Positions 4,831 to 48,312 of a DNA stretch of 64,000 bases are shown piece by piece. Where the stretch lies: the IMG/VR virus record IMGVR_UViG_3300005393_000370. The stretch is one strand, 5' to 3'. The first letter of the stretch is position 1; the number at the start of each line of letters is the position of its first letter. The notes under the pieces are model-generated. The model saw only the letters and a program-made list of their open reading frames with translations, was not told the origin of the DNA and ran no database searches. The DNA is from a virus. The translations under genes and the position numbers were made by a program.

Positions 4831-5427
4831 ATGCTCGTTGACATTGATCGGGAGTCCCAACCACAGTTTCGTACCGGCAGCGGCTCCGTGGGCCTCGATG
4901 TCATCCGCCTCGGTTCGGCGGATGCCCGCCAGACCATCACCGTGACGGCCACGACTGGCACCTTCAAGCTGTCGCTGGATGGCGTCGAGACGGCTGCCAT
5001 TGCCTTCGATGCCCTGGCAGCGACCGTACAGACGAGATTGGAAGCCCTCCTCGGCGCGGGGAATGTCGCGGTCTCCGGCAATGCTGGCGGCCCATTCACT
5101 ATGACGGCGAAGGATACCAAACGCTGGCAACGGATCAGCGCGTTGATTGGCATCGACGTGGACCTGGAAGGAGAGGACCACGGAGTCGCTGTGAGCGTCG
5201 TCGAACACGGTCATGCGGTCGGTGGTGAGGCGAAGAAGTATGTCGTGATCCGCGCCAATGGGGCCAATGCCAACGTCATTACGGTCGGCCATTCGGTCGC
5301 GGACGTGGGCAACGGGTTCATCCTCTCGGCCGGGCAGCAAAGTCCGCCGATCTACGTGGACAACCTGAACAAGGTCTATCTCGTCGGCGGTGCGGCGGAC
5401 CAGGGCTACTCGTGGATCGCCTGTTAG
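4831..5427 (+). CDS. putative virion protein with inserted beta module
   Basis: 198 aa in the head module; central QTITVTATTGTFKLSLDG...GNVAVSGNAGGPFT segment resembles a module recurrent in phage structural proteins. Confidence 0.6.
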   Translation: MLVDIDRESQPQFRTGSGSVGLDVIRLGSADARQTITVTATTGTFKLSLDGVETAAIAFDALAATVQTRLEALLGAGNVAVSGNAGGPFTMTAKDTKRWQRISALIGIDVDLEGEDHGVAVSVVEHGHAVGGEAKKYVVIRANGANANVITVGHSVADVGNGFILSAGQQSPPIYVDNLNKVYLVGGAADQGYSWIAC

Positions 5428-6103: not shown

Positions 6104-6961
6104 ATGTTCCGTTCGCTGTATCTGTCTCGTCCGTGGAATGCGTGTTTCGAGGGTGACGATGATGCTGCCGCGAAGGCTGCCGCCGACAAAGCCGCCGCCG
6201 ACAAGGCTCCTGCCGAGGCCGCTGCTGCGGCTGCCGGCAAGACGTTCACCCAGGAAGACGTGAACCGCTTTCTCGCGGAGGATCGTCGCAAGTACCAGGC
6301 CCAGATCAAGGAGCAGGCCGACAAGTTGGAGAGCGTGCTGAAGAACAGCCAGTTGAGCGAGCAGGACCGCAAAGTGCTGCAAGAGAACCTGGCGACCCTC
6401 CAAGGCCAGTTGCGGTCGGCCGAAGCGGCGGCGGCAAAGCAGAAACAGGAATTGGAACAGCAGTTCCAAGCGAAGTTGGTGGACGCGGAGAAGAAATCCC
6501 AGATTTGGGAGGCACTGTACCGCGAGTCCACCGTGCAGCGGGCGTTGCAGGACGCCGCCGTGAAGGGTGAAGCGTGGGCACCCAGCCAGATCGTCACGAT
6601 TCTGAAGCCCATGACGAAGCTGGTCGAAGGCGTCGATCCGATCACGAATCGGCCCAACGGCCAGTACGAAGTGAAGATTGAAATGCTCGATACAAACCCC
6701 AAGACCGGTCAGAAGGAGTTGATGGTCTACACCCCCAACGAAGCCGTGGCGCGGATGAAGGAACTGGAGGACCAGTACGGCAACCTCTTCAAGTCGGGCG
6801 TCGTATCGGGCATCGGTTCGAGTTCGGCCACCGGCGGCCTCATGCCGGGTAAGGGCGGTCGATTAGATGCGGCGACGTTGAGGAACCTCACGCCGCAGCA
6901 GTATCGAGAGATTCGAGAGAAGAACCCTGAATTGCTCGGTCTCGCTCCCAAGCGCCGCTAG
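6104..6961 (+). CDS. capsid scaffolding protein
   Basis: Ala/Lys-rich N-region, KTFTQEDVNRFLA motif and long coiled coil; directly before the major capsid gene; start placed at ATG 6104 after GAGG. Confidence 0.8.
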   Translation: MFRSLYLSRPWNACFEGDDDAAAKAAADKAAADKAPAEAAAAAAGKTFTQEDVNRFLAEDRRKYQAQIKEQADKLESVLKNSQLSEQDRKVLQENLATLQGQLRSAEAAAAKQKQELEQQFQAKLVDAEKKSQIWEALYRESTVQRALQDAAVKGEAWAPSQIVTILKPMTKLVEGVDPITNRPNGQYEVKIEMLDTNPKTGQKELMVYTPNEAVARMKELEDQYGNLFKSGVVSGIGSSSATGGLMPGKGGRLDAATLRNLTPQQYREIREKNPELLGLAPKRR

Positions 6962-6964
6962 CAC

Positions 6965-7025
6965 CTGTCAGGGGATGTGCGTGAAAGGTCGCTCCGGCGG
7001 CTGACTGGTCATGGCGACTGGCAGC
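6965..7025 (+). promoter_or_regulatory. intergenic structured element, copy B, in the capsid gene leader
   Basis: CTGTCAGGGGATGTGCGTGAAAGGTCGCTCCG followed by GGTCATGGCGACTGGC, homologous to 556-628. Confidence 0.5.
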
Positions 7026-7070
7026 AGCGCCCAAGAGCAGAATCATCCCATCAGCTTTGGAGAAACAACG

Positions 7071-8477
7071 ATGAATCGTCTCTACCTCAGCCAGCCGTTC
7101 GTGGCTTGCTACGAAAACAACCTGGACGCCTACATCCCCGAGTTGTGGGCGCAGGAAGGTCTCGCCATCCTGGAAGAGAACATGGTCATGGCGAACCTGG
7201 TTCACCGCGACTTCGAGAACGAGGTCGCCAAGTTCGGCGACGTGGTGAACACCCGGAAGCCGGGCGAGTTCAAGATTCGCCGGAAAACGGACGGCACCAC
7301 GCTGACCCAGCAGGACGCCACCGCGACCAACGTGCCGGTCGCCCTGGACCAATGGTTCTATTCCAGCTTCGTGATCCGCGACGGCGAAGGCAGCAAGTCC
7401 TTCCAGGAGTTGAAGGAAATCTACCTCCAGCCCGCGATGCTGACCATCGCGCGCGGCATCGACCGCTCCCTACTCGGCCGGGTCCACGCCTACTTCGGCG
7501 GCACCCACGACCGCATCGGCCGGCTTGGTGCCCTCAGCGCCAGCAACGCCAAGGATTGGAGCCTGGACGCCCGCGAGCGCCTGAACGTCAACAAGGCCCC
7601 CGTGGACGGCCGCCGGCTGGTCATGGCCCCGACCGCCGAGACCGCCATGCTCAAGACCGACCTGTTCATCAAGGCTAACGAGCGAGGCGACGGCGGCACG
7701 GCGTTGCAGAACGCCACCCTGGGCCGCATCCTCGGCTTCGACACCTTCATGTGCCAGAACGTCAACTGCGTTCTGAGTGGGGACACCGACAGCGATCCGG
7801 TGACGGAGCCCTACGCGGCCGGCACACCCGGCGCGACCCAGTTCGCGTCCGTCCTGGCCCCGGAGGCGGGCGAGTTCGTCAACATCGCCGGCAACGACCA
7901 GCCGACGTGGTGCGTCACGACCAACGCCGCCTGGTTCACGCTGAACGAGGCCCTGAAGTACGCCACGCTGGACGACGCCGTTGCCACGCGCGTCAAGAAG
8001 TGCCGTGCGCAGCATGGCCTGGCGAACCTGCCGGTCGGCTACAGCAAGGCCATCGTGCTCGACCAGTACACCGCTGGCAGCGCTCCGCAAGTCGGCCAGT
8101 TGCTCGCCTTCGGCAGCACCGCTGGCACCCGGCACACCTACACGGTGATCGAGTCGGAAGACGCCGGTGCGACTTGCACGGTGTACCTCGATCGGCCGCT
8201 GGAGAAGGTCGTGAGCGCCGACGACGCCGCTTACCCCGGCCCGCTCGGTTCGATGAACCTGGCGTTCCATCGGGACGCCCTGGCCCTCGTGACCCGGCCG
8301 CTGGCCCTGCCGGATACCCGCATGGGCGTCATGGCCGCCGTGGTCCCGCACAACGGGATCGGGATGCGCGTCTTGATGCAGTACGACATCAACGCGGGCG
8401 GGACCGTCGTGAACTGCGACATCCTGGCTGGCGTGGCCGTTCTGCAAAGCGGCCTCTGCGTCCCCGTGCTCGGCTAA
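7071..8477 (+). CDS. major capsid protein, P22 coat-like HK97 fold with insertion domains
   Basis: IPELWAQE..LEEN.V..LVHRDF..GDVVN, LG.I.GFDTFM and NLAFHRDA.ALV.RPL motifs; start at ATG 7071 after GGAGA. Confidence 0.9.
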   Translation: MNRLYLSQPFVACYENNLDAYIPELWAQEGLAILEENMVMANLVHRDFENEVAKFGDVVNTRKPGEFKIRRKTDGTTLTQQDATATNVPVALDQWFYSSFVIRDGEGSKSFQELKEIYLQPAMLTIARGIDRSLLGRVHAYFGGTHDRIGRLGALSASNAKDWSLDARERLNVNKAPVDGRRLVMAPTAETAMLKTDLFIKANERGDGGTALQNATLGRILGFDTFMCQNVNCVLSGDTDSDPVTEPYAAGTPGATQFASVLAPEAGEFVNIAGNDQPTWCVTTNAAWFTLNEALKYATLDDAVATRVKKCRAQHGLANLPVGYSKAIVLDQYTAGSAPQVGQLLAFGSTAGTRHTYTVIESEDAGATCTVYLDRPLEKVVSADDAAYPGPLGSMNLAFHRDALALVTRPLALPDTRMGVMAAVVPHNGIGMRVLMQYDINAGGTVVNCDILAGVAVLQSGLCVPVLG

Positions 8478-8580: not shown

Positions 8581-8877
8581 ATGGAACTGTTCTTTGCCCA
8601 AGCCGATACGTTTGCCGATGCGATTGCCTTGCTCAAGCAGTACGGCCCGCTGGTCCTGGTGACTGCCATTCTTCTCTGGCAAAGCTGGGTCCGCGAAGGT
8701 CGCATGACCAAACGGATCGTGAAGCTCGAAGACGAGCAACGCAACGTGCTCATGCCACTTGTCGAGCGTTGCGCGGATGTGATCGCCCAGAACACCTTGA
8801 TGATGGAGCGGCTGGAGAAGGCGCTGGACGAGCGCTTCGAGTGCCCTTGGCGGCCCAAATGCTCGCAACAAACCTGA
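8581..8877 (+). CDS. small single-TM protein with coiled coil (holin-like)
   Basis: 98 aa; TM YGPLVLVTAILLWQSW; GGAGA RBS. Confidence 0.55.
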   Translation: MELFFAQADTFADAIALLKQYGPLVLVTAILLWQSWVREGRMTKRIVKLEDEQRNVLMPLVERCADVIAQNTLMMERLEKALDERFECPWRPKCSQQT

Positions 8878-25395: not shown

Positions 25396-26214
25396 ATGGC
25401 TGCCCTGTATCCCCTGACGCTCGACGCCTGGAACAGCCTGCTTGGGCGGATCAACAACCTTGCCTCATGGCCGCCCGAAGGCTGCGATCCCATTGCGCAA
25501 CTGCCGCTTGTGACCGCCCCGCACAAGTGGACGGTGCAGGACATCACGGCGGCCCAGAACAAGCTGATCGCGATTTGTTCCGAGAATACTTTCACGACAC
25601 CTTCGCCGAGCGATAAGTGGCGGAAGCTCTACATCGACGAGCTTGACGAGGCCATCGACAACGGCTGGTGCAACTGCGAGCCGCCGATACCGTGCTGCAT
25701 ACCTTATGGAAACGGGACTGTCTGGATCGAAGGCCCCGGCGGCGGCTATTACGTGACCATACCCTACTGGCAAGTCATCGAACAATACCTTTACGGGAAC
25801 ATAAGCTACGGGGCGGCTGAGGCGGCTCTGCCCGAGGAAGTCATGGCGCATCTGGTGCAGTGCTATCCAGGCAGCAGTGCCTTCCTTTCCCACAGCTACC
25901 ATCACCTTCATGGGGTGGGCCTAGTCTTTCAGGACGTTTGGCTCGAAGGCGGCAACCGGGGAGGAGAGTATTGGGAGGACGGAGGGACTGACCCAGAGGA
26001 GGTTACTTACTTGGGGCGCGTGCCGGCCATTGCTTCAAGCTATCACAGCAGCTACGTGCAGGGAGCGACTAATTACTACGGCCCGATTGGTATGGGCTAC
26101 CATTACGATTACATCGAACAGCGCTGGTATGAAACATTCTTGATCGGCGGCTTCGACAGGGATTGGTACTGGTATTACTTCTCTTACTGGAATCTGTTCA
26201 TGTGCTCGGCGTGA
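25396..26214 (+). CDS. putative tail-distal protein with Cys-rich N-region and aromatic-rich C-domain
   Basis: 272 aa, last gene of the + strand virion block; Tyr/Trp/Gly-rich C-half that looks lower in GC. Confidence 0.6.
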   Translation: MAALYPLTLDAWNSLLGRINNLASWPPEGCDPIAQLPLVTAPHKWTVQDITAAQNKLIAICSENTFTTPSPSDKWRKLYIDELDEAIDNGWCNCEPPIPCCIPYGNGTVWIEGPGGGYYVTIPYWQVIEQYLYGNISYGAAEAALPEEVMAHLVQCYPGSSAFLSHSYHHLHGVGLVFQDVWLEGGNRGGEYWEDGGTDPEEVTYLGRVPAIASSYHSSYVQGATNYYGPIGMGYHYDYIEQRWYETFLIGGFDRDWYWYYFSYWNLFMCSA

Positions 26215-26264
26215 ACCTTCCTCACGGCAAGTAGACAAGGGCAAGTGCGGCAAGTGCGGTTGGG

Positions 26265-26306
26265 CAACGTGCCCAGGTGGATACTCACCTGGGCATGTTG
26301 CATTTC
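26265..26306. terminator. hairpin at the convergence of the two transcription blocks
   Basis: 15-bp stem CAACGTGCCCAGGTG/CACCTGGGCATGTTG (one G-U pair), 6-nt loop. Confidence 0.6.
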
Positions 26307-26321
26307 TGGGAGAAGCATCCT

Positions 26322-26507
26322 ATGGAAAGCGCGTTTGCTTGGCTGAACCAGTTGTTCCAGGCCATCTATCCGTTCTTCGCGCGCATCCTGATGTGCGTGC
26401 TACGCACGGTGGCGTGCGGTGGGTGGAGCGTCTTTTCCACCGTAAACGGCGCGGCCTCCAAATGGCGATGTTTCACATCCTTCCCCCAGCATCGCCACGA
26501 CGGCTAA
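26322..26507 (+). pseudogene. possible frameshifted gene remnant (SPFH/band-7-like N-terminus)
   Basis: GGGAGA RBS; MESAFAWLNQLFQAIYPFFARIL continues as VRATHGGVRWV only after a 1-nt shift near 26391; family assignment from memory only. Confidence 0.3.
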
Positions 26508-26539
26508 CCCATCGGCTACATACGAGAACCCATGCGATT

Positions 26540-26941
26540 TCAGGACAGGCGGGCAGCGCACTTGTGGCACTGCTCCAAAGTGACTTCGTGGCTGAAGTGC
26601 TCGGTCTTGGGGCTGCCACAGATGCCGGTGATATGCAGCGCGCCGTCCAGGACTTGGACGCGGAGCATCCGCAGCGTGCAAGGCGGCCAGGTGGGATAGA
26701 GGCGCGAGCCCTCTTGCCGGAAGCCGGCGAGTGCCGGAGGAAGTCCGGGGAATTCCAGAGAGCCGTCCGGGTGGACCGTGGGCCATCCGTGGGTCATTTC
26801 CACGTCGGGAATCGCGTGTGCCAGGAGGCGATAGAAGCTCGCGGGCGGACCGCCGGAATAGACGAGGTAGTTACAGCTTCCCGAGGGCGTCGGGCGGCGG
26901 GGTTGGTCGTCAGGGCAATCACACGGCATGGGTGTCACCAC
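26540..26941 (-). CDS. Cys-rich hypothetical protein
   Basis: 133 aa; CDC and C..P....F...V...QCHKC; overlaps the upstream minus-strand gene. Confidence 0.6.
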   Translation of the reverse strand: MVTPMPCDCPDDQPRRPTPSGSCNYLVYSGGPPASFYRLLAHAIPDVEMTHGWPTVHPDGSLEFPGLPPALAGFRQEGSRLYPTWPPCTLRMLRVQVLDGALHITGICGSPKTEHFSHEVTLEQCHKCAARLS

Positions 26942-27420
26942 AATTCACGGGGGCAGTGCTCCGTAGCCATCTTGATCTTGTTGAGAACGGCCACGCCGTT
27001 TTCGGCTACCCGACAACCGCAGCCTCGGCAGATTTGCCGTTCAGGGTCAAACCACTTGCACGACTTACAATGCTGATAGAATATCCGCTCAACTTCTTTG
27101 TCGGATCGCTCGGGCTGACCAGCGGCCGTCCATCGGGCCAGGGCCTCGGTATAGGAGATTGCCCGACGCACCAGCCCCGGAGTTTTGGGCGCATCTGAGG
27201 AGTCAGACGGCGGCGGCGGGGATGGCGGCGGTGGCGGGGACGATTCAGGGGTTGCTATCTCGGTCGGCTTCAGTTCAAGCCCGAGGCAATGGCGACAGTC
27301 GATGGGTCGAACTGGCCGCAGAAAGTAACCCCTAGAGGGATCGTTGCACTTAGGGTGCATGTCTGCGCCAGTGAGGCGCTTCGGGCATAGCGCATATTCG
27401 CGCTGTTCGACCGTTGACAT
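26935..27420 (-). CDS. Cys-rich protein with C-terminal CxxC...CxxCGC...CP..W domain (DUF6171-like)
   Basis: 161 aa; GGGGA RBS; poly-Pro linker; CKSC...CRGCGC...KIKMATEHCPRELW. Confidence 0.65.
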   Translation of the reverse strand: MSTVEQREYALCPKRLTGADMHPKCNDPSRGYFLRPVRPIDCRHCLGLELKPTEIATPESSPPPPPSPPPPSDSSDAPKTPGLVRRAISYTEALARWTAAGQPERSDKEVERIFYQHCKSCKWFDPERQICRGCGCRVAENGVAVLNKIKMATEHCPRELW

Positions 27421-37523: not shown

Positions 37524-37894
37524 GCGAGGTCCGATGTCGCATCGTGATTGCCAAGGGCCGCTACGAGGGTCATGCCCCTACGGAAGCCAGTGTCAACGGC
37601 GTCCTGGAGTGGGTCTTCTCCGACTCGCTGAACGAGTTGGAGTTCACGGACCCGGACGACGACGTTGCGTTGGAGGCTGAGGTCGTAGTGCTCTTGAAGT
37701 CACGCTACCGACGTTGGGGCCACGACGAGGCGATTCGTGACCGGATCGTCACGGCCCTCGTGGATCGGTTGAAGCCGGAGTACGAGAGCCAAGTGGAAGT
37801 GGAGATCGTCGAAGGGCCGGACGGATCGGACGATTCGTTTGACAACGAGGATGGCCCAGAACCGCCACACCGGATTGTCCGTGTCTGGCGATGA
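37520..37894 (+). CDS. acidic hypothetical protein
   Basis: GTG start overlapping the helicase stop; 124 aa. Confidence 0.55.
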   Translation: MSEVRCRIVIAKGRYEGHAPTEASVNGVLEWVFSDSLNELEFTDPDDDVALEAEVVVLLKSRYRRWGHDEAIRDRIVTALVDRLKPEYESQVEVEIVEGPDGSDDSFDNEDGPEPPHRIVRVWR

Positions 37895-37932
37895 CCGTGA
37901 AACCTTCTCTGTACACCTTGGAGATTGCAGCG

Positions 37933-38892
37933 ATGAAATACGTGCTGTTGGTTCTGACCCTGCTCGCCGTGGCCGTCGGCCCGGCAGTCGCCAGTGTCCC
38001 TGATGAATTGCAGAATGTGAGCGTCACCATTAAGGCGGGCCGCGCCCAAGGCTCCGGCACCCTCGTCACTCGACAGGTGGGCGACGAGACCGTGAGTTTC
38101 ATCTGGACGGCCGCGCACGTCGTCGATGGCCTGCGTACCACGCGCACGGTCGTCACGCCGCAGGGCGCTCCCCGCATCAAGGTCGAGTACAAAGACCCCG
38201 AAATCGTCCAAGAGCGCCAACAAAACGGCCGCCGCGTGGGCGAAGTCAAGTACGACTGCAAGGTCATTAAGGTCAGCGATGCCGATTATGGCGAAGACCT
38301 GGCGGTGCTCATGGTCCGCTGCAAAGGGGCCTATCCGCTCAGCGCCACGGCCAAGTTCCACAAAGACCCGAACTACATCCCACCCATCGGCATTGACTTG
38401 AGCCATTGCGGCAGCCTCCTCGGGCAGTTCGGGGCGAATAGCTACACGACCGGCGTGCTCTCTCAGGTCGGGCGCACCCTGCCGATGAAAGGCGCGAACG
38501 TCAAAGTCTTCGATCAGGTAACGACTGTTTCGTTCCCCGGTTCGTCGGGCGGCGGCATGTACCTGAAGGACAGCGGCATCTACATCGGCATGTTGACCCA
38601 GGGAGTGATGCAGTTGCAGGGCTTCAATTTCATCGTCCCCGTGCGGCGCATCCATGCCTGGGCCAAGGAAGCGAACATCGAGTGGGCCATCGACACGTCT
38701 GTCCCGATGCCCAGCCTGAAAGAAATCGAAGCGATCCCGGTGGAAGACGAAGGCCAGTCGCCTGGTGGCTATCCGCAGCGGAATCCGGCCGGCGGCCTGC
38801 CCGACGATGGTGCTGCCTTCAAGCCGCCGTTCGATTTCGATGGTGCGATCAACTGGGTGGAAAAGTTCTTCGGCCGCGCTCGCCGGCCCTGA
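37933..38892 (+). CDS. exported trypsin-like serine protease
   Basis: signal peptide MKYVLLVLTLLAVAVGPAVA; GSGTLV, WTAAH (His), DLAVL (Asp), FPGSSGGG (Ser). Confidence 0.88.
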   Translation: MKYVLLVLTLLAVAVGPAVASVPDELQNVSVTIKAGRAQGSGTLVTRQVGDETVSFIWTAAHVVDGLRTTRTVVTPQGAPRIKVEYKDPEIVQERQQNGRRVGEVKYDCKVIKVSDADYGEDLAVLMVRCKGAYPLSATAKFHKDPNYIPPIGIDLSHCGSLLGQFGANSYTTGVLSQVGRTLPMKGANVKVFDQVTTVSFPGSSGGGMYLKDSGIYIGMLTQGVMQLQGFNFIVPVRRIHAWAKEANIEWAIDTSVPMPSLKEIEAIPVEDEGQSPGGYPQRNPAGGLPDDGAAFKPPFDFDGAINWVEKFFGRARRP

Positions 38893-47144: not shown

Positions 47145-47645
47145 ATGAATCTGCAACAACGCCCCGAGCCGTGGATGTGTATGCCCTTGGCTTTCGCTGC
47201 CGCCTTGGACATACCGGTTGCCGACATGCTGACCGCTATTGGCCACGACGGCAGCGAGGTTGTCTTTCCAAGCCTTGCCGAGCCGCTGTGCCGGCGGGGC
47301 TTTCATATCCAAGAGCTGGTCCAGGTTGCCCTGGCACGCGGGCTGGCCGTCACGCCGGTTGAGTTGTTTCCCGTGCTGCAACCCACCGAGGCAGGGCCGT
47401 TCCACAGGGTCGTGCTCTACCCGGACAACAACTGGCGGCGCTTCGACGCCGTGATCCAAGGCAGTCGCGGCGTCATTGACGGCACGGGCGCTCGCCTCGG
47501 CCACATGGTCGCTTATGACCACGGCCGCATCTACGACCCCCGCGGGTCGGTCTACGACTACAGCCGTCTCGCTTGTGAAGCCCACCAGTTCTACACCCGC
47601 TGCGCCTGGCGGATCGACCCCATTGGAGGATGCAACCGTGAGTAA
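47145..47645 (+). CDS. putative C39-like cysteine peptidase
   Basis: Q.....C...A.A..L at the N-terminus; GHMVAY and IYDP give a plausible Cys-His-Asp arrangement. Confidence 0.5.
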   Translation: MNLQQRPEPWMCMPLAFAAALDIPVADMLTAIGHDGSEVVFPSLAEPLCRRGFHIQELVQVALARGLAVTPVELFPVLQPTEAGPFHRVVLYPDNNWRRFDAVIQGSRGVIDGTGARLGHMVAYDHGRIYDPRGSVYDYSRLACEAHQFYTRCAWRIDPIGGCNRE

Positions 47646-48312
47646 GCAATACAACAGCCAACTTCTCGCCGACATGGTGCAACTTGGTAGACCTTTCGGC
47701 GTCGAAGATAACGCCCGGCTGTACCCTCTCGTGACCGCCGGGGACGCCGCCGCCCGCAAGCAAATGATCGAGGGCAATATGTCGCTGGCCATCGCCAAAG
47801 CGGACAGCTTCATCGGGTGCTTTCCAACGCTCGCCTACCTTCGGGACGATCTCGTCAGCGTTGCGTTCGTTGGCCTCGTGAAGGCCACAAACAAGATTGC
47901 GGCAGGCAAGGGGCCGCGAAACACCGACGCGACGGCTCCAACCGACTTCATCGGTATGTGGATCAATCGGGAGCTTGGCGAACTGCTCGAAGACGAAGAA
48001 ATCGCCCCGCCGCACACATCCCTGCATCGGGCGCGCGCCCAGGGAAAAGAGCTGACCTTGCCCACGGTCTGCAACGTCATTCCTGAGCGATTCGAGACGC
48101 CCTCCTATTTGGAAGAGCTGGAGTTGCGCGACCTAATCGACGCCTGCTGTACTTGCGACGAAGAGCGCGCCTTCGTGGCGATGCGTGAAGCAGGCCACAC
48201 CTACGCCGAAGTCGCCAAGGCGATCAACATGCCGCTCAGCTCCACCTACGTCATGGCGAGAGACTTGGACGCCCGATTGCAGCACAAACTGAAAGCCATC
48301 CGTGACGAATGA
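47638..48312 (+). CDS. phage sigma-70-type sigma factor (regions 2 and 4)
   Basis: GDAAARKQMIEGNMSLAI, DDLVSVAFVGLVKA, WINREL and C-terminal HTH (GHTYAEVAKAINMPLSST); GTG start. Confidence 0.8.
   Translation: MSKQYNSQLLADMVQLGRPFGVEDNARLYPLVTAGDAAARKQMIEGNMSLAIAKADSFIGCFPTLAYLRDDLVSVAFVGLVKATNKIAAGKGPRNTDATAPTDFIGMWINRELGELLEDEEIAPPHTSLHRARAQGKELTLPTVCNVIPERFETPSYLEELELRDLIDACCTCDEERAFVAMREAGHTYAEVAKAINMPLSSTYVMARDLDARLQHKLKAIRDE

Follow-up and report, generated by a model that had tools for sequence, protein, structure and literature searches.

A shared, co-varying N-terminal leader on the scaffold and P22-like coat proteins of Planctomycetota phages, and a candidate phage-encoded C39-like leader peptidase

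Heads of the P22 type are the textbook example of maturation without proteolysis, and the scaffold and coat proteins of P22 share no leader. In T4-like phages several head proteins have short N-terminal capsid-targeting sequences in common, and these are removed during maturation by a gp21-type serine protease that is encoded in the head module and cuts after Glu. The only characterised leader shared by a scaffold and a capsid protein is that of Staphylococcus phage 80alpha, whose capsid and scaffold are shortened at the N-terminus by 13 and 14 residues, respectively, by a host ribosome-processing enzyme, Prp (PMC5744158; Prp-dependent processing is also attributed to Wall et al. 2015, as cited in PMC5744158). 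Cleavage of either 80alpha protein is dispensable, although the scaffold N-terminal sequence itself is required (PMC5744158). Here we consider a 64,000-nucleotide stretch of viral DNA (IMG/VR record IMGVR_UViG_3300005393_000370; "the window" below means this whole stretch) in which the scaffolding protein and the P22-like major capsid (coat) protein begin with one and the same leader, LYLSxPxxAC[FY], and a stand-alone C39-like cysteine peptidase, P0001, that is encoded elsewhere in the window and is a candidate for the enzyme that would remove it.

The arrangement is like that of 80alpha in that the same short leader stands on scaffold and capsid (13-14 residues there, 14-15 here), in that the leader ends in an aromatic residue and in that the head module lacks a prohead protease. 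It is unlike 80alpha in that the terminal aromatic is all that LYLSxPxxAC[FY] has in common with LNLQ[FH]F/A (the slash marks the cut), in that the coat is P22-like and in that the candidate enzyme is phage-encoded and of a different peptidase fold family. With P22 the phage shares the coat family (PF11651) and the use of separate scaffold and coat genes. The tags of T4-like phages are the nearest parallel for short N-terminal sequences common to several head proteins, but there is no gp21-type protease here, the conserved residue is aromatic and the residue that follows is often Ala or Gly. Neither the LYLSxPxxAC[FY] motif nor a phage capsid protease of the C39-like kind turned up in our literature searches. 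The features that carry the leader are as follows.

6104 to 6148, plus strand: scaffold leader, residues 1-15, MFRSLYLSRPWNACF; the F15 codon is 6146-6148
6104 to 6961, plus strand: scaffolding protein gene, 285 residues (phrog_206 head scaffolding protein, E 2e-5)
7071 to 7112, plus strand: capsid leader, residues 1-14, MNRLYLSQPFVACY; the Y14 codon is 7110-7112
7071 to 8477, plus strand: major capsid protein gene, P22-like coat, 468 residues (PF11651, E 5e-31; phrog_283, E 4e-62)

The scaffold ATG is at 6104 and opens the N-terminus MFRSLYLSRPWNACFEGDD; that of the capsid is at 7071 and opens MNRLYLSQPFVACYENNLDAYIPELW. Both are preceded, 8-9 nucleotides upstream, by a GGAG-type ribosome-binding site, and on both proteins LYLSxPxxAC[FY] is followed by [EDA]. 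With the two N-termini brought into register at the aromatic (F15 and Y14), 8 of 12 positions are identical, and different codons are used at seven of the eight residues common to both leaders. A preliminary description of this DNA, made from its letters, had quoted two N-termini sharing a motif and had argued from their differing codons that conservation was at the protein level; the window agrees exactly with the quoted sequences and the codon count bears the argument out. The likeness is also specific. When the whole window is translated in six frames, nothing but the scaffold agrees with the capsid 12-mer at 7 or more positions (in shuffled windows, agreement at 8 or more of 12 occurs 0.025 times), and the core C[FY][ED][GN] occurs at just two sites in the 64 kb, the two leaders. 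Directly behind F15 the scaffold continues with an acidic, Gly/Ala-rich low-complexity linker. The scaffold gene lies directly upstream of the coat gene, an order kept in all relatives. In several of these a stop codon stands 0-5 codons ahead of the leader Met, so that the leader starts are secure, and the possibility, raised in the preliminary description, that the real starts lie downstream of the motif does not hold.

How general is the shared leader? A scan of IMG/VR returned 80 loci with coat identities of 49-82%, a scan of species-representative genomes added 20 further loci, and more records were reached through the P0001-type peptidase gene, taking coat identity down to about 37%. The contigs derive from anaerobic digesters and wetlands. 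In all, more than 100 phage or prophage loci have the leader on both genes, and wherever both starts lie on the contig both genes bear it. Moreover, the two copies change together. Scaffold/coat pairs include ..VLFPCY / ..AVFPCY, RYWAGVRFACY / KYHAQVRYACY, ARFVGF / ARFVGY, TQPFVLVY / TQPFQLVY, SFRPVF / SFKPVY and EFICY / EFVCY, as well as INTFYD in both proteins and ..VLVCR / ..MLVLR, in which Arg replaces the aromatic in both. Over 66 distinct scaffold/capsid pairs, leader identity is 52% within a genome versus 36% between genomes, and at the variable positions it is 43% versus 25.5% (permutation p <= 2e-4, with relatedness not corrected for). Conservation is strongest for Tyr at P10, Cys at P2 (94%) and Phe/Tyr at P1, with Glu/Asp/Ala/Gly and then Gly/Asn behind them; the signature thus has two parts, a hydrophobic-Tyr-hydrophobic group around P11-P9 and, at P4-P1, hydrophobic-x-Cys-[Phe/Tyr], after which come an acidic or small residue and Gly/Asn. 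Most lineages have a coat leader of 14 residues and one clade has one of 8; scaffold leaders run to 10-19 residues, and in an alignment of the whole scaffold (A3) Cys14 of the leader is among the few nearly invariant columns.

Two further results bear on how this likeness is maintained. Among 415 identical leader residues the same codon is used at 151, versus 181.5 expected from codon usage, so the likeness is kept at the protein level and not by gene conversion, an explanation that the codon analysis rejects. Additionally, a leader position matrix scored at least 12 bits at exactly two places per genome in six genomes of 64-147 kb, that is, no leader-bearing proteins beyond scaffold and coat were found in the six phage genomes scanned. 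We conclude that both copies of the leader are made as protein and that selection for recognition by a single shared partner keeps them similar. The preliminary description had made co-conservation on both genes in relatives a test of its proposal; the motif is not only co-conserved but co-varies, and we are highly confident that the leader has a function and is recognised as a module by some common partner.

The leader is, in addition, an add-on to an otherwise ordinary coat. The coat scores 108 bits against PF11651 (cut-off 24), with coat residue 17 aligned to profile position 5, and in phrog_283 residue 15 aligns to position 2. The leaderless coats of two cultured relatives, Vibrio phage SSP002 (MANTLE...) and Streptomyces phage Hiyaa (VANTFL...), start at the equivalent of residues 15-16, and in neither phage do scaffold and coat have a common N-terminal sequence. 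In an AlphaFold2 model of the coat built from 49 homologues (mean predicted local distance difference test score, pLDDT, 84), residues 1-15 have a pLDDT below 50 and no secondary structure, and the N-arm helix starts at residue 18. In every scaffold a low-complexity linker of Gly/Ala/Asp/Glu/Pro comes right behind the motif. The leader site is therefore expected to be exposed on both proteins, being disordered on the coat and tethered by a linker on the scaffold. The first 15 scaffold residues and the first 14 coat residues are one peptide module, added on. Thus the preliminary view that the coat continues where P22-like coats begin, with about 14 residues in front as an addition, is upheld by the profile starts, the leaderless homologues and the disorder of the model.

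The coat gene itself shows a second kind of variation. In several relatives (L031-L035, L032, L056) it is interrupted by an in-frame stop just after the N-arm (...IPEL), and the match spans about 2.07 kb versus 1.4 kb. In L213 (1647-2405) an extra open reading frame (ORF) of 253 residues lies between the scaffold gene and a coat part that matches from about residue 28; by its sequence it may encode a homing endonuclease, and the coat gene may then have received an inserted intron or intein-like element.

What, then, might the common partner do with the leader? We propose that scaffold and coat would both be made with an exposed leader tag, which would be read through its two conserved groups and, as a propeptide, trimmed from both of them, either ahead of procapsid assembly or in the course of it. 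The predicted scissile bond follows the aromatic or lies one residue beyond it; since papain-like enzymes as a rule recognise a bulky hydrophobic side chain at P2, the second of these bonds would be the expected one. A cut coat would begin at E15 or N16, where leaderless P22-like coats begin, and a cut scaffold would begin with its acidic flexible linker. That the leader is cleaved seems to us somewhat the better bet.

The alternative that survives best is that the leader is retained, as a shared docking, folding or regulatory tag (for the portal, the coat shell, a chaperone or a coupling of synthesis to assembly), or that it leaves with the scaffold. We rate this as rather unlikely, although several points speak for it: P22-like phages normally mature without proteolysis, co-variation in the form of identity suits any common binding partner, and the flexible linker that tethers the motif to the scaffold recalls the cargo-loading peptides of encapsulins, which are likewise tethered by a flexible linker. 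Against retention, the model gives the coat leader no order and no part in the fold, the leaderless homologues assemble without any tag, and conservation is sharpest at the C-terminal boundary of the leader while its length varies from 8 to 20 residues, which is more typical of a processing site. A retained leader would also put 14 mostly hydrophobic residues per coat subunit on the DNA-facing side.

If the leader is cleaved, the enzyme may be encoded by the phage itself, and the candidate is found in the following pair of genes.

47145 to 47645, plus strand: P0001, stand-alone C39-like cysteine peptidase, 166 residues, candidate leader peptidase; Q4, C12, H120 and D131 conserved
47476 to 48312, plus strand: sigma-factor-like gene (phrog_351 sigma factor, E 7e-5), directly downstream of P0001 and a possible alternative partner of it

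The P0001 ATG is preceded by GGAGAG at 9 nucleotides. P0001 itself gave no Pfam match at E up to 0.01 (C39 families included), no PHROG match and, with its own profile, no PDB sequence match at E up to 10, and it is structure that identifies it. Its AlphaFold2 model (pLDDT 88) matches the peptidase domains of PCAT1, ComA and LahT150 (PDB 6mpz, 7s5j and 5xe8) with a Foldseek probability of 1.00 and with VIA-align Z scores of 11.5, 11.0 and 10.5 (for 6mpz_A, Z 11.5 with a root-mean-square deviation of 2.7 over 121 residues), and its matches among AlphaFold DB clusters are mostly named Peptidase C39. Since the papain-like staphopain and pseudomurein peptidase PeiR come within about 2 Z units of the best matches, we regard the clan as certain and the C39 family as probable. 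Down to 33% identity (alignments A4 and A6), C12 and H120 are invariant and Q4 and D131 at least 90% conserved; from their order and spacing these four are predicted to be the catalytic residues. The fold and the Gln-Cys-His-Asp order are those of the C39 double-glycine peptidases, whose known role is the removal of short N-terminal leaders. Unlike them, P0001 stands alone, without an ABC transporter or a signal peptide, and its putative substrates are virion proteins and not bacteriocins.

P0001 is widespread among the leader-bearing relatives. The family comprises 1599 clusters (50% identity, E <= 1e-3). Of 13 related phage records, 12 encode P0001, and none of the four with a completeness of 90% or more is without it. 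It recurs in prophages of G001-G003, two of them at a coat identity of just 45%, and in another nine records whose coats are 37-60% identical and whose shared leaders persist. It has no homologue in 50,697 cultured phage records, and the two related coats that were read from that collection, those of SSP002 and Hiyaa, are without the leader. A walk outward from the most divergent coat (L205) reached only fragmentary records, and among these, being 16-42% complete, a point of joint loss of leader and peptidase was not located. A single Thermoguttaceae chromosome (G003:C1) holds three of the prophages, each with a P0001-type gene, at about 1.47-1.51, 2.16-2.21 and 2.68-2.74 Mb; the P0001-type gene of the first contains an internal TGA.

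P0001 is favoured because its fold is that of enzymes known for removing N-terminal leaders and because the other protease candidates, described below, are not conserved. Its gene belongs to a conserved run (polA, nuclease, C39-like, sigma-like, NT5C, ligase), and since it lies in this replication cluster, ahead of the sigma-like gene, the enzyme could be available before the late proteins are made. The preliminary description had listed the C39-like gene among its candidates, and its fold, conserved catalytic residues and phyletic pattern have strengthened it as a putative leader-cleaving enzyme. In the proposed mechanism the cutting enzyme would be the phage's own P0001, and the phage would itself encode a convergent equivalent of the Prp processing that the 80alpha scaffold and capsid receive from their host. 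The link between P0001 and the leader is circumstantial, and we advance P0001 as the leader-cutting enzyme only tentatively. A complex prediction of P0001 with coat residues 1-35 scored 0.00, without controls, and weighs neither way on binding.

A number of considerations weigh against assigning the leader to P0001, or against its cleavage altogether. Cleavage by known C39 enzymes takes place behind Gly-Gly and depends on narrow S1 and S2 pockets, and the leaders of the putative substrates here end in Cys-[Phe/Tyr], not in Gly-Gly. The co-occurrence of peptidase and leader does not discriminate between explanations, because the carriers are all members of a single large clade with many other genes in common. 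The P0001 gene lies in the replication cluster, outside the head module, and is linked, and in two database representatives (P0130 and P0184, about 384 residues) fused in frame, to the sigma-like gene; given this conserved linkage and the fusions, the sigma factor could be the substrate of P0001. As called, the sigma-like gene has its start region overlapped by the P0001 gene, and its true start is probably near 47650. P0001 could also be a lysin, because no endolysin was recognised among the window ORFs compared with Pfam and PHROGs (40 further ORFs included) and because PeiR is so close in structure; against a lytic role, neither of the two PDB structure searches with P0001 names an NlpC/P60 or CHAP structure in its 50 listed matches. 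In G004 (Thermoguttaceae) an apparently intact structural module carries both leaders, and no P0001 copy was detected. Finally, a tag can matter without being cut, because in 80alpha the scaffold N-terminus is required for assembly and its cleavage is dispensable, a precedent that also speaks for retention.

The G004 element (G004:C1:1296709-1321500, L140-L141) consists of the structural half only, from the gene before TerL to the tail fibre, without a replication module, and may represent either a recent remnant or a particle-forming element that has been domesticated. With these points counted in, the complete proposal, in which the leader is removed from both proteins with P0001 as the likeliest enzyme, is in our estimate possible but short of an even chance.

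Two other genes of the window encode proteases, and they come into question as leader peptidases.

57925 to 58695, plus strand: ClpP-like protease gene (PF00574, E 2e-20)
37891 to 38892, plus strand: trypsin-like protease gene, found elsewhere only in G006 and G011

The window's genes were called and then compared with five relatives fetched in full, all of them leader-bearing. Its head module consists of TerL, portal, a variable ORF of 198 residues, an Ad1-like adaptor, scaffold, coat and a small membrane protein; none of these genes matched a protease in Pfam or PHROG, and the earlier statement that the module lacks one is thereby confirmed. A canonical prohead protease, of the HK97/T4 or the ClpP/S49 type, would be a conserved gene in the interval from portal to coat; no such gene is found there, and the sole ClpP-like gene is 50 kb away. 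That gene, which had been proposed as a candidate, has no homologue in the 13 related records or in the five fully fetched relatives and is rejected. The trypsin-like gene occurs in the close relatives G006 and G011 and is missing from the leader-bearing G014, G017 and G018, and it too is rejected. No further protease was recognised with Pfam and PHROGs among 40 additional window ORFs.

There remains the host. In 80alpha, the sole documented precedent, the enzyme is a host protease, and by analogy the leader might be cut by a non-Prp protease of the Planctomycetota, with P0001 serving instead in sigma-factor processing, lysis or counter-defence. The linkage and occasional fusion of the C39-like gene to the sigma-like gene would fit such a role, G004 keeps both leaders without a detectable C39-like gene, and the hosts identified are confined to a single phylum: the prophages sit on long contigs or chromosomes in metagenome-assembled genomes of Thermoguttaceae, Pirellulales and Planctomycetaceae (Planctomycetota), and a few short contigs binned elsewhere are probably misbinned. 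We nevertheless judge this explanation improbable. Prp (PF04327) had no match in five host genomes, whereas the controls B. subtilis, T. maritima and L. lactis were matched, nor had it one in the 13 related phage records at E up to 1, and L27 in the five host genomes starts directly with MAHKKGQGSS, without an extension. With Prp missing from hosts and phages and L27 unextended, processing of the Prp/80alpha type is rejected; of the marks of that system, only the same leader on scaffold and capsid is present, and Prp, an extended L27 and the LNLQ[FH]F/A motif are all missing. The preliminary statement that the motif is unrelated to the Prp/L27 leader is therefore correct.

Nor did the host genomes reveal a tagged protein of their own. 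The five genomes were screened with a strict DNA pattern and with a 14-column leader profile; what came back were the scaffold and coat genes of the prophages themselves and no host protein with the leader tag. The other hits were all internal or non-coding: in G004 an internal site in a membrane protein, and in G005 a site at residue 191 of a 273-residue ORF, an unannotated short ORF and the read-through of a tRNA that neighbours an integrase. Hence no host protein appears to be mimicked, unlike L27 in the case of 80alpha. In addition, P1 and the preceding residues vary by phage lineage (R, G, V, A, F), a variation unmatched by the host proteins searched. The preliminary description had suggested both a host protease and a scan of hosts for the same leader; the enzyme keeps the low probability just given, and the scan did not yield the tagged host protein that would have supported it. 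The last explanation, that the likeness is functionless, a duplication relic or the product of gene conversion that recurred between the 5' ends of these neighbouring genes, which share one orientation, is scarcely credible given the codon usage in the window and in the 66 pairs, the persistence of the motif to 37% coat identity and the place of the leader Cys among the best-conserved scaffold columns.

A few observations on neighbouring genes may be added. Between the portal and the Ad1-like adaptor of the window, the 198-residue ORF (4831-5427) has weak PHROG tail-protein matches and is common only to G011; in other relatives the same slot holds 0-9 kb of other DNA. Right after the coat gene, an ORF of 98 residues (8581-8877) recurs in nearly all relatives, without a family match, and looks membrane-spanning by its sequence. 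Two ORFs at the end of the tail module (25396-27076) match neither Pfam nor PHROG.

We conclude that a clade with hundreds of metagenomic members, which infects Planctomycetota, a phylum with almost no studied phages, has a design like that of 80alpha on a head of the kind long taken to mature without proteolysis; the motif is unrelated, Prp is missing, and the phages themselves encode a conserved peptidase from a fold family known for leader removal. Even if the leader is uncut, its strong co-variation marks a common partner, and the work on 80alpha left open why both proteins carry the tag. That a stand-alone phage C39-like peptidase is the head-maturation enzyme of this large clade of Planctomycete phages, cutting a two-part Cys-[Phe/Tyr] leader, is a conjecture that we put forward with some reserve. 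If it is true, a cysteine-peptidase class would be added to the head-maturation proteases of phages and C39-type specificity would be extended beyond Gly-Gly, and the same N-terminal tag on scaffold and coat would be a sequence signature by which processing systems may be recognised in uncultured phages.

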